Part shown: one piece after another, positions 35,601 to 37,556 of the stretch
Position numbering within the stretch: the stretch's first letter is position 1
Layout of the letters: every line of letters begins with the position of its first letter
NCBI GenBank assembly: GCA_942492765.1
Contig: OW818634.1
Location: 6,627 to 70,626, forward strand
Source of the DNA: an uncultured bacterium
GTDB lineage: Bacteria > Patescibacteriota > Patescibacteriia > Patescibacteriales > UBA12465
Length of the DNA: 64,000 nt
Reading direction: 5' to 3'
The notes under the pieces: model-generated
Told to the model about the DNA's origin: nothing
The model's database searches: none
What the model saw: the letters and a program-made list of their open reading frames with translations, nothing else
Program-made: the position numbers and the translations under genes

Positions 35601-37132
35601 ATGGCCGCGACTATTTCCAGATGTATGGCAATGCGGTTCAAGATCTTAATTATCATTATGATGCGGTCGGAAATATCACTCAAATTCAAGACAAATCCTA
35701 TACCAATGCTGCTAAGGTAATGGATTATACCTATGATGACCTGAATCGGTTAATTACCGCCTCTAGCACTATCGCTGACAATAATCAGAACTATCGCCAG
35801 ACCTACTCCTATAACGCTATCGGTAATCTCCTCAATAAGAGCGATATTGGCGATTATACTTATAATGGCTATCAAGGCGCCAATTACGCCAACCCTCACG
35901 CCGCTACGACGATAAACGGCACTGCTTCTACCTATGATAATGCCGGCAATCTGACGAGCGACGGAATCTGGACTAACGCCTGGAACTATAATAATTGGCT
36001 CACTAGTTCCACTAACGGCACGACTACAGTCATATATGCCTACGACCAGTCTGGAAACAGAGTAAGCTATTCCGCTAATAACGCCACGACCACGACAGCT
36101 AATAAATACTACCAGACAACGGGAGCCACTAGCACTAAGTATATCTACGCCGGTAATAGTTTCGTCGCTACCCTAGAAAAGACGGCTAACGGCACGGATA
36201 CCTATTATAACCATAACGATCATCTGAGCGGCAGCAATGTCATTTCTAATGCTTCTAGCACTCTAGTAGAGCTCCTTGATTATTATCCATACGGAGGTAT
36301 AAGATTAGACGAAAAGCAAGGAACCTTTAATGAGAAGAAGAAGTTTACAGGGCATGAGTATGATGCTGATACCGGCCTTAACTATATGGGGGCGAGATAT
36401 CAGGATGGGAATATAGGAAGGTTCGTGAGTGAGGATCCGTTGGTAAATGATTTAGGCATAAATAATGAGGAGTTCAAAAATAGGCATCAGAAAACTTTAA
36501 ATGAAGTTTTGATAGATCCTCAGAGTTTAAATAGTTATTCCTATGCTCTTAATAATCCATTGAAGTATGTTGATCCGACTGGAAAAAGTGCCACGCTTTA
36601 TGTTAGACCGGGTGGTTTAATAACTGGTATTTCAGCTTCTTTAAGCCTAAATCCGCTAAATTGGATGGGGCATGCTACGATTAATGTCAACGGCCAATAT
36701 TATGGGTTTGCTCCCACGTCAAAAGATCCAATTAGTGATGTTCAAAATTATAGTCAAAGCACATTTGAATCTGATTATAAAGGGAATCTTTTTGAGAGTT
36801 TTGGTTTGAACACTACCCCAGAACAAGATCAGAAGATCGTTGATTACTATAAGAGTTTTGATGGCAAACAAAAAGAAGGCGGGGCTAATGAGTATGATGT
36901 GCAGACTAATAATACCTGTGTAACTAAAGCGCGGGGTGCCTTAGAGTCTGCCGGAGTCACTCAAGGCTCGAAGATATTGAGCATCCCAAGTATTACCCCC
37001 AATATGCTGGCTAATCAATTTAAGGCATATAATATAATTGAAAAAGTCTCCAATTTTATTAATGGCGGTGGCAATAATTTGGTAAATAGTATTAATCAAG
37101 GAAGGGTTGTTGATTCAAAGAATAAAAAATAA
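29660..37132 (+). CDS. Giant secreted RHS/YD-repeat polymorphic-toxin-like protein (2,490 aa). Domain order: signal peptide, S/T-rich linker, SpvB/TcB-like N-terminal domain, FG-GAP/VCBS repeats, YD repeats, two CBM4/9-like carbohydrate-binding modules, an FN3-like region, an RHS core ending in DPxGK, and a variable C-terminal toxin domain.
   Basis: Read from the translation: the signal peptide ([14 protein letters not shown]), the SpvB-like block ([30 protein letters not shown]...[17 protein letters not shown]), FG-GAP-like motifs ([15 protein letters not shown], 6 copies) and many YD repeats (YxYDxxGNL). Also the RHS core end motif ([17 protein letters not shown]...[17 protein letters not shown]) and two beta-sandwich CBM-like modules ([15 protein letters not shown] and [14 protein letters not shown]). 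Confidence 0.8.
   Translation: [2490 protein letters not shown]
30895..31890 (+). repeat. Three tandem ~330 bp coding repeat units (FG-GAP blade pairs). Units 1 and 2 share long identical stretches and unit 3 is diverged.
   Basis: Identical runs such as ggagatggaactggctggcagcaggacactaa(c/t)tgggttcttccgtccgtgtattttgcgagtgtttat... occur at 31056-31160 and 31389-31495. The same frame-shifted ORF artefact, MEMELAGSRTL..., appears twice in the ORF track. Confidence 0.8.
36587..37129 (+). other. C-terminal variable toxin domain of the RHS protein (181 aa after the DPTGK cleavage/demarcation motif); fold unassigned, possibly a permuted papain-like His...Cys enzyme
   Basis: It starts immediately after YVDPTGK and contains [16 protein letters not shown] (His) about 85 aa before [10 protein letters not shown] (Cys). 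The region is about 33-35% GC, lower than the gene body. Confidence 0.5.
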
Positions 37133-37136
37133 ATAT

Positions 37137-37556
37137 ATGAAAAGAAAAATAAAAATTGTAATCATTGTAGGAGTCGTAATAATTTCAGTCACAGTAGCTT
37201 GGGTTATTTACCAGGCTAATAATACCGATTATCAATTAAATAAATTATCAAACGGAACTCCAAACCAAAAAGCCAGAGCCGCAGATTTTTTGACCAAAAA
37301 GAAGGTTTATGAAGCCATCCCTTTGATGATTGAAAATATCAGCAACAACGAGGTCGCTAATATCTACGGGAAGGCCCCAGCTAATATATACTGTGTTATA
37401 TTTTATGATTTAGAAGAATTGGTGAATAATAATTTTGGTTTTTGTTCTAATGAAGTTATTAATAATGATAAGTCAAAGCAGGCCATAATTGATAAATGGC
37501 AAAATTGGTACAAAAATGAATATCCGCAATGGTTAAAAGAACACCAACAAAATTGA
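37137..37556 (+). CDS. Candidate cognate immunity protein (139 aa, single N-terminal TM helix). The alternative upstream ATG at 37107 would overlap the toxin stop.
   Basis: It begins 4 nt after the RHS stop. It is AT-rich and has one hydrophobic helix (KIKIVIIVGVVIISVTVAWVIY). The tightly coupled position is typical of toxin-immunity pairs. Confidence 0.5.
   Translation: MKRKIKIVIIVGVVIISVTVAWVIYQANNTDYQLNKLSNGTPNQKARAADFLTKKKVYEAIPLMIENISNNEVANIYGKAPANIYCVIFYDLEELVNNNFGFCSNEVINNDKSKQAIIDKWQNWYKNEYPQWLKEHQQN

Follow-up and report, generated by a model that had tools for sequence, protein, structure and literature searches.

The 64,000-nucleotide stretch of contig OW818634.1 analysed here (hereafter the window), which is from a Patescibacteria (candidate phyla radiation, CPR) bacterium, encodes an RHS polymorphic toxin whose C-terminal tip constitutes, together with the product of the small gene directly behind it, what is very probably a true toxin/immunity pair with a permuted NlpC/P60 fold. 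Judged by its predicted structure, the tip represents a new sequence family within the permuted NlpC/P60 superfamily, with TseH and YiiX as its closest structural relatives, and would be a papain-superfamily thiol enzyme with His29 and Cys111 as the predicted catalytic residues and Gln53 as a candidate for the third. Taken as a whole, the reading that we favour, and consider rather likely, is that of an exported, RHS-encased thiol acyl-hydrolase which acts on membrane lipids and is blocked by a surface-anchored immunity protein. The elements concerned are the following.

29660..37132, forward strand: RHS polymorphic-toxin gene, 2490 residues (from the list of open reading frames (ORFs), the translation and Pfam).
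36281..36583, forward strand: RHS repeat-associated core (autoproteolytic plug), with DPTGK as its last residues (...YVDPTGK).
36587..37132, forward strand: toxin tip, 181 residues plus stop (coding part 36587-37129; stop codon, TAA, 37130-37132).
37137..37556, forward strand: cognate immunity candidate, 139 residues, ATG start 4 nt after the TAA of the tip.

The gene shows what characterizes RHS polymorphic toxins, that is, (i) RHS/YD repeats followed by a core with a PxxxxDPxG(L/K) ending, (ii) a variable tip that is found on differing N-terminal architectures (SpvB-RHS, fn3/PKD/DUF6531-RHS, S8, and short or orphan forms), and (iii) a downstream immunity gene that co-varies with the tip. The core is recognized by the NCBIfam model TIGR03696 with E=1.1e-18 and 67.5 bits versus a cut-off of 32.5, the match comprising residues 28-128 of a fragment starting at 36200.

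An earlier note, which had been made from the letters of the stretch, could not name a family for the tip, and indeed no curated family matches it: comparison with Pfam, NCBIfam, PDB sequences, PHROGs and PADLOC yielded no significant match, and a word-indexed homology search of 5.8 billion proteins returned no match for the tip and, when started from the family profile, two members only, both already known. The tip family is very rare in public data. When 1.84 billion cluster representatives were searched exhaustively with HMMER, 13 tip relatives were obtained (E from 1.5e-26 to 2.4e-5); no tip relative was retrieved from 185,579 species-representative genomes by two pattern scans, tblastn of the tip against plasmids gave nothing significant, and the sole addition from a metagenome scan was one truncated locus (L005). 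Two more tip copies (L001/L002, 78% identical) are located on metagenome contigs that were reached via the immunity gene.

In 12 of the 13 relatives the domain forms the extreme C-terminus directly after the DPxG of the RHS core, and the proteins to which it is attached are diverse. They include a 1713-residue fn3/PKD/DUF6531-RHS protein (P0007), two fusions to a subtilisin (S8) peptidase (P0005, P0015), three short proteins composed of signal peptide, core remnant and tip (P0009, P0010, P0012), a protein in which only a signal peptide precedes the domain (P0014), and an orphan tip (P0004). The latter, comprising 215 residues with no RHS body upstream, adjoins murC and murB at locus L009 (4001-5048).

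An alignment of 15 tips, which are, the close copy excepted, 24-44% identical to that of the window, reveals nine invariant positions: G28, H29, G40, Q53, F60, I84, N109, C111 and L119. Among these are the candidates for catalysis, His29 (in WMGHATI; 36671-36673), Gln53 (36743-36745) and Cys111 (36917-36919). The His and Cys that had been singled out in the earlier note are thus strictly conserved, and both their order and the motifs around them were given correctly, as were the coordinates in the note, although the distance between them is 82 residues and not about 85.

AlphaFold, when supplied with a 14-sequence alignment, modelled the tip with a predicted local distance difference test score (pLDDT) of 86.8 and a predicted template modelling score (pTM) of 0.86; this model was used instead of the one obtained from the single sequence, for which the pLDDT was 36. 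In the model, His29 opens β-strand 29-34 and Cys111 opens helix 110-121. The helix follows the sheet in an otherwise papain-like layout, which therefore represents a circular permutation, and the tip exhibits the two features that characterize permuted NlpC/P60 domains, namely a His-bearing strand ahead of the Cys-bearing helix and the conservation of both residues. Comparison of the model with known structures gave the following matches.

6V98, TseH: score 11.2 (134 residues, 2.7 Å).
2IF6, YiiX: score 9.8.
3KW0, YiiX-like 'cysteine peptidase': score 8.5.
5XN7, MARTX RID acyltransferase: score 6.9.
7ZOT, PLAAT4: score 5.9.
2WP7, DeSI/PPPDE: score 5.8.
7ZV6, Aichivirus 2A: score 5.1.

The sequence identity between TseH and the tip in the structural alignment is 14%. 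Foldseek, which is the weaker method, placed PPPDE1, DeSI and 3KW0 at the top of its matches in the PDB, while the named matches among viral models were LRAT, PPPDE and 'permuted papain-like amidase'. The conjecture that the arrangement of His and Cys recalls permuted papain-like enzymes is hence borne out by the modelled fold and by the invariance of the two residues, although its closest structural relatives are not LRAT but TseH and YiiX.

At the level of sequence, echoes of known families can be recognized in single members of the tip family. Lnb_N/DUF4105 (PF13387) is matched by eight of the 15 members around the Y-x4-NNC motif, mostly below cut-off; P0016 attains 23.0 bits for the whole sequence versus a cut-off of 22.2, but no single stretch passes, so that no domain-level match above the gathering score was obtained, and the tip of the window is without any Lnb_N match. 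Peptidase_C97 (PF05903) is matched by three of the 15 members, at best with 18.5 bits versus a cut-off of 29.2 (P0010), and the tip of the window does not match it and cannot be assigned to that family. Finally, alignment of the family with an approximate DeSI-1 sequence by hhalign places the invariant Cys on Cys108 with a probability of 13%, which is a lead and not evidence.

TseH (VCA0285), which is structurally closest to the tip, is the Vibrio cholerae effector of the TseH/TsiH pair delivered by a type VI secretion system (T6SS), and is represented by PDB entry 6V98 and Pfam family DUF6695. While TseH travels on its own as T6SS cargo of a diderm, the domain described here forms the tip of a Sec-exported Patescibacteria RHS protein, and the immunity family of the window is unrelated to that of TseH. 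A second relevant system is Tox-Act1/Imm-Act1 of the Salmonella SPI-6 (pathogenicity island 6) T6SS (PMC12994826), which likewise combines a permuted NlpC/P60 toxin with a membrane-embedded immunity protein, and to which we liken the tip by description. The sequence echoes of DUF4105/Lnb just described for eight of 15 members, mostly sub-threshold, are common to Tox-Act1 and the tip family. The two systems differ in that (i) the His-Cys spacing is 108 in Tox-Act1 (H43/C151) and 82 in the tip of the window, (ii) Imm-Act1 has two transmembrane (TM) helices whereas the immunity protein of the window has one TM segment and a soluble domain, and (iii) Tox-Act1 is delivered by the T6SS and the tip of the window by the RHS/Sec route.

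The YiiX/YaeF-like permuted papain amidases (Peptidase C92; 2IF6, 3KW0) are housekeeping enzymes or enzymes of unknown function and not toxin tips, and no sequence-level match of the tip to them was found. With Lnb (Bacteroides lipoprotein N-acyltransferase, PF13387) the family has in common a Y-x4-NNC(T/S)Q-like motif around the catalytic Cys; the match spans only about 20-60 residues, and Lnb itself is biosynthetic and has at its C-terminus a large membrane domain. Papain-like toxin domains are listed in the 2012 catalogue in the canonical C...H order only (PMC3482391).

The gene that starts 4 nt after the stop codon of the tip, at ATG 37137, encodes the 139-residue protein with a single TM segment that had been noticed from the letters of the stretch. 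Its N-terminus is basic (MKRKIK) and is followed by one hydrophobic segment (residues 7-25, 37155-37211; hydropathy maximum 2.85) and by a Cys pair, Cys86 (37392-37394) and Cys103 (37443-37445), which is invariant in the alignment of immunity homologues. Regarding the start codon, a TTG at 37107 given in the mechanical ORF list was rejected: the homologues, and the database entry P0001, which has 139 residues and is 100% identical to the candidate, begin at ATG 37137. As was the case for the tip, comparison of the protein with Pfam, NCBIfam, PDB sequences, PHROGs and PADLOC gave nothing significant; its matches to HEAT repeats are weak (HEAT_2, E=0.24; PDB 10lk_d2, E=0.05). Considering both the positive-inside rule and a likely disulfide bridge, we infer that the domain behind the TM segment faces outward.

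If the two genes form a pair, the partner should accompany the tip in related genomes, and the survey of small-ORF homologues that had been proposed in the earlier note shows that it largely does so. Of the ten distinct loci whose downstream sequence can be read, the window being counted, eight have an immunity homologue directly after the tip (window, L001/L002, L003, L006/L007, L008, L009, L010, L011), and at these loci the tips have diverged to 25-44% identity. The partner gene begins 4-14 nt past the tip gene or overlaps it, and its E-value, to the protein of the window or to another member of the family, is between 1e-67 and 3e-7. The closest homologues of the immunity candidate, P0002 (75% identity) and P0003 (54%), have a tip homologue directly upstream with the same 4-nt spacer. 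The partners at L008 (after P0005; E=1.5e-23 to the protein of the window), L010 (after P0016; E=7e-26) and L011 (after P0012; E=1e-19) are likewise readily recognized, while the one at L006/L007 (after P0007) is more distant and is linked to the family through the protein of L011 (E=3e-7). All partners have a basic N-terminus and one TM helix, except for that of L008, which has three. At L009 the partner (after P0004) is split into two ORFs, and this cassette is probably decaying. At L008, on a contig of 1.3 Mb, toxin/immunity cassettes are arrayed one after the other, since behind the immunity homologue lies, at 7216-8517, a second, orphan module with a faint Ntox24 match and Imm53.

Base composition and a direct repeat set the 3' end of the gene apart. 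The tip has a GC content of 0.375 and the immunity gene one of 0.314; the RHS body has 0.424, and the flanking housekeeping genes have 0.47-0.52. Among equally long segments of the RHS body, only 8.5% reach the AT-richness of the tip; that of the immunity gene is reached by no segment of the body and by 0.3% of all segments in the 64 kb. Elsewhere in the RHS gene, an equally AT-rich stretch (GC 0.33) is located in the N-terminal part at ~30160-30660, and the whole gene is compositionally foreign, with a GC content at third codon positions (GC3) of 0.41 versus 0.55-0.64 for rpsB, tsf, PSP1, gap and the short-chain dehydrogenase gene. The repeat consists of the following two elements.

35922..36012, forward strand: left copy of the direct repeat, located within the intact gene (RHS residues ~2088-2118).
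37580..37689, forward strand: truncated RHS remnant containing the right copy of the repeat (37580-37670).

The copies are 91 nt long, 84% identical and spaced by 1658 (blastn: 82% over 106 nt with one gap), and between them lie the core, the tip and the immunity gene together with the last part of the shell. In translation, the right copy corresponds to RHS residues 2090-2118 (86% amino-acid identity) and ends abruptly thereafter, and just downstream of the left copy GC3 falls from ~0.50 to ~0.36. We propose the left copy as the upstream crossover site of an imported cassette, and the remnant seems to be what is left of an earlier 3' end that was displaced; at L001, L002 and L003, too, the immunity gene is immediately followed by renewed RHS-like coding sequence. 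The repeat together with the break in GC is a signature of tip replacement via recombination in the conserved repeat region. We take the 3' end of the RHS gene to carry a roughly 1.65-kb imported, exchangeable toxin/immunity cassette, as had been expected from the AT-richness of the tip and the ORF behind it relative to the gene body. In these respects it resembles the classical rhs-CT/rhsI cassettes of Rhs, WapA and Tc-type proteins, which have in common with it the RHS shell, the TIGR03696 core ending in DPxG and the variable tip, as well as a tightly linked immunity gene, an AT-rich composition and a displaced RHS fragment downstream. Most characterized RHS tips are, however, nucleases, ADP-ribosyltransferases or other enzymes acting in the cytoplasm.

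Based on the evidence collected so far, the pair might operate as follows. The aspartyl autoprotease of the core would cut behind DPTGK, the tip being kept within the RHS shell, and export and contact would then lead to release of the tip at the surface of the target cell. There it might hydrolyse or transfer fatty acyl groups that are ester- or amide-linked in membrane lipids, possibly also in lipoproteins, thereby causing damage of the phospholipase-A type as for Tox-Act1 and TseH. The co-transcribed 139-residue protein would guard the producer, with its N-terminal helix serving as an anchor and its domain on the outer face binding or blocking the toxin. As to its origin, the segment 36013-37579, which takes in the last part of the shell as well as core, tip and immunity gene, may have arrived by recombination in the conserved RHS repeat region, with the older 3' end being displaced by the incoming segment so that about 110 nt of it would be left.

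For the substrate, we give a membrane lipid, by analogy with relatives of the same fold, an even chance, while peptidoglycan appears unlikely and a protein quite unlikely. The permuted proteins within the NlpC/P60 superfamily represent its lipid-directed branch; TseH shows phospholipase activity, and Tox-Act1, which cannot do without its His and Cys, exerts its toxicity solely in the periplasm, is countered by a membrane immunity protein, and cleaves phosphatidylglycerol and phosphatidylethanolamine (PMC12994826). Action outside the cytoplasm fits both the exported immunity domain and the relatives that consist of a signal peptide plus the tip.

Several points weigh against a lipid-directed toxin with a surface-anchored antidote. 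The analysis shows the fold, the invariant His and Cys, the joint conservation of the two genes, the membrane anchor, the repeat and the GC break; we infer, rather than observe, toxicity, substrate, an outside-in site of action and neutralization by binding, and for every member of the family toxicity and protection are predictions. The substrate is deduced solely from relatives in fold; peptidases and isopeptidases (DeSI/PPPDE) also share this fold, and the first report on TseH described it as a cell-wall hydrolase. The putative active site formed by His29 and Cys111 is placed by predicted secondary structure, the hydrophobic pocket is likewise putative, and the presumed topology of the immunity protein is that suggested by the positive-inside rule and the Cys pair. 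Furthermore, DUF6695, the Pfam family of TseH, gave no match at E<=10 to the tip or to the 15 members, and the family profile, when compared with PDB sequences, did not find 6V98 at E<=10 and yielded only chance matches (such as DNA polymerase epsilon, E=0.8). RHS tips usually act in the cytoplasm, so that a tip acting on the envelope would be of the less common kind (PMC12994826). Finally, the tips at L012 and L013 are followed by a different TM protein. After P0009 (L012, 3870-5033) this is a 387-residue protein with multiple hydrophobic segments, and after P0010 (L013, 1549-1881) a TM protein with an unrelated domain, which suggests alternative immunity solutions for one toxin fold.

Cassette and fold could be the same and yet serve another substrate, in that the tip might be a cell-wall amidase or endopeptidase that cuts the stem peptides of the target's peptidoglycan from outside, the membrane-anchored immunity protein then shielding the zone of wall synthesis of the producer. 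Precedent for such a function exists in the classical NlpC/P60 enzymes and in the original reading of TseH; we regard it as the main rival, with a small probability. Smaller still is the probability that the tip is a PPPDE/DeSI-like peptidase or isopeptidase with a protein target, be it a lipoprotein, a surface protein, or a cytoplasmic protein reached after translocation. PPPDE1 and DeSI are the top matches of Foldseek in the PDB, and Peptidase_C97 is the sole Pfam model with a match that is collinear over both catalytic motifs (P0010), albeit at a sub-threshold score. That the tip is a structural or self-processing RHS domain with no toxic function, and the ORF behind it an unrelated small membrane protein, is hardly to be expected: papain-like domains of polymorphic toxins are sometimes releasing peptidases (PMC3482391), but the domain here is always at the extreme C-terminus behind the cleavage motif of the core, it occurs on unrelated N-terminal architectures as well as in orphan or signal-peptide-only form, the same small TM protein accompanies tips that are merely 25-44% identical, and the AT-rich composition and bounding repeat are those of exchangeable cassettes.

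The protein that carries the tip is TcB/TcC-like and consists, in this order, of a signal peptide, SpvB, FG-GAP repeats, TcdB_toxin_midN, RHS/YD repeats, two CBM_4_9 modules, further RHS repeats, the core and the toxin tip; the corresponding Pfam matches are to SpvB, FG-GAP_3, TcdB_toxin_midN, RHS_repeat, CBM_4_9 and DUF6443. The signal peptide was identified by reading the RHS translation by eye.

29660..29758, forward strand: predicted Sec signal peptide (basic n-region, hydrophobic core, VLA-A motif).

Two features of the shell deserve mention. Within the FG-GAP part (30900-31843), a 333-nt (111-residue) unit is repeated in tandem in 2.8 copies with 79-88% identity, which points to a recent internal duplication of propeller blades. 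At ~34430-35270 (RHS residues ~1592-1870), the two CBM_4_9 modules, preceded by a low-complexity linker, are located within the RHS/YD region, and this unusual insertion in an RHS shell may represent a target-binding module. The 2490-residue protein itself is missing from the collection of 5.8 billion proteins, in which P0001, RpsB, EF-Ts and GAPDH of the same contig are present; the gene may have remained uncalled in the public record or been flagged as a pseudogene.

Upstream of the RHS gene lie rpsB, tsf and a PSP1 gene, and downstream gap, a short-chain dehydrogenase gene, a NuoF-like gene and a FeFe hydrogenase gene; no secretion-system genes were seen near the RHS gene. RpsB and EF-Ts of the window belong to 90%-identity clusters in which the named members come from MAGs labelled 'Patescibacteria group bacterium' and 'Candidatus Falkowbacteria bacterium', and this places the host among the Patescibacteria. 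The region 39571-43092 comprises the genes for the NuoF-like flavoprotein and the large subunit of the FeFe hydrogenase with a UPF0259-like ORF in between, and these genes are compatible with a fermentative, hydrogen-producing metabolism. Neither tRNA genes nor, at the gathering threshold, Rfam families were found in the 64-kb window.

The earlier note had suggested that the pair may be undescribed. This is appropriate at the level of sequence families, but not for the kind of system, since that is already described with TseH and with Tox-Act1 (PMC12994826). By the thresholds of the respective models, the family of the tip falls outside DUF6695, DUF4105 and Peptidase_C97, and it is new, as is that of its immunity protein. 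New are also the vehicle, an RHS tip, and the host lineage, Patescibacteria, for which a full-text literature search for Rhs toxin/immunity systems found almost nothing. Already known are RHS toxins with linked immunity genes and orphan remnants, and antibacterial toxins with a permuted NlpC/P60 fold. Because RHS tips of unknown function with linked immunity genes are common, and because both the fold and its role in toxins have been described, no concept is changed.

Our findings thus add a sequence family and an immunity family to the recently recognized lipid-targeting, permuted NlpC/P60 antibacterial toxins, and extend a fold known from T6SS cargo of Proteobacteria to Sec-exported RHS proteins of Patescibacteria, a group whose weapons and host interactions are almost uncharacterized. 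The pair is compact (181 and 139 residues) and offers clear residues for mutagenesis, that is, H29, C111 and Q53. It is tempting to speculate, although we consider this a long shot, that the unnamed and very rare toxin/immunity family is one in which a tip secreted via Sec by ultra-small Patescibacteria and comparable uncultured bacteria, either RHS-shelled or bare, strips acyl chains from the outer membrane leaflet of a neighbour or host. If this were true, the tip would be a tool with which episymbionts devoid of their own lipid synthesis harvest lipids or attack their hosts, and hence more than a weapon in the competition among kin.

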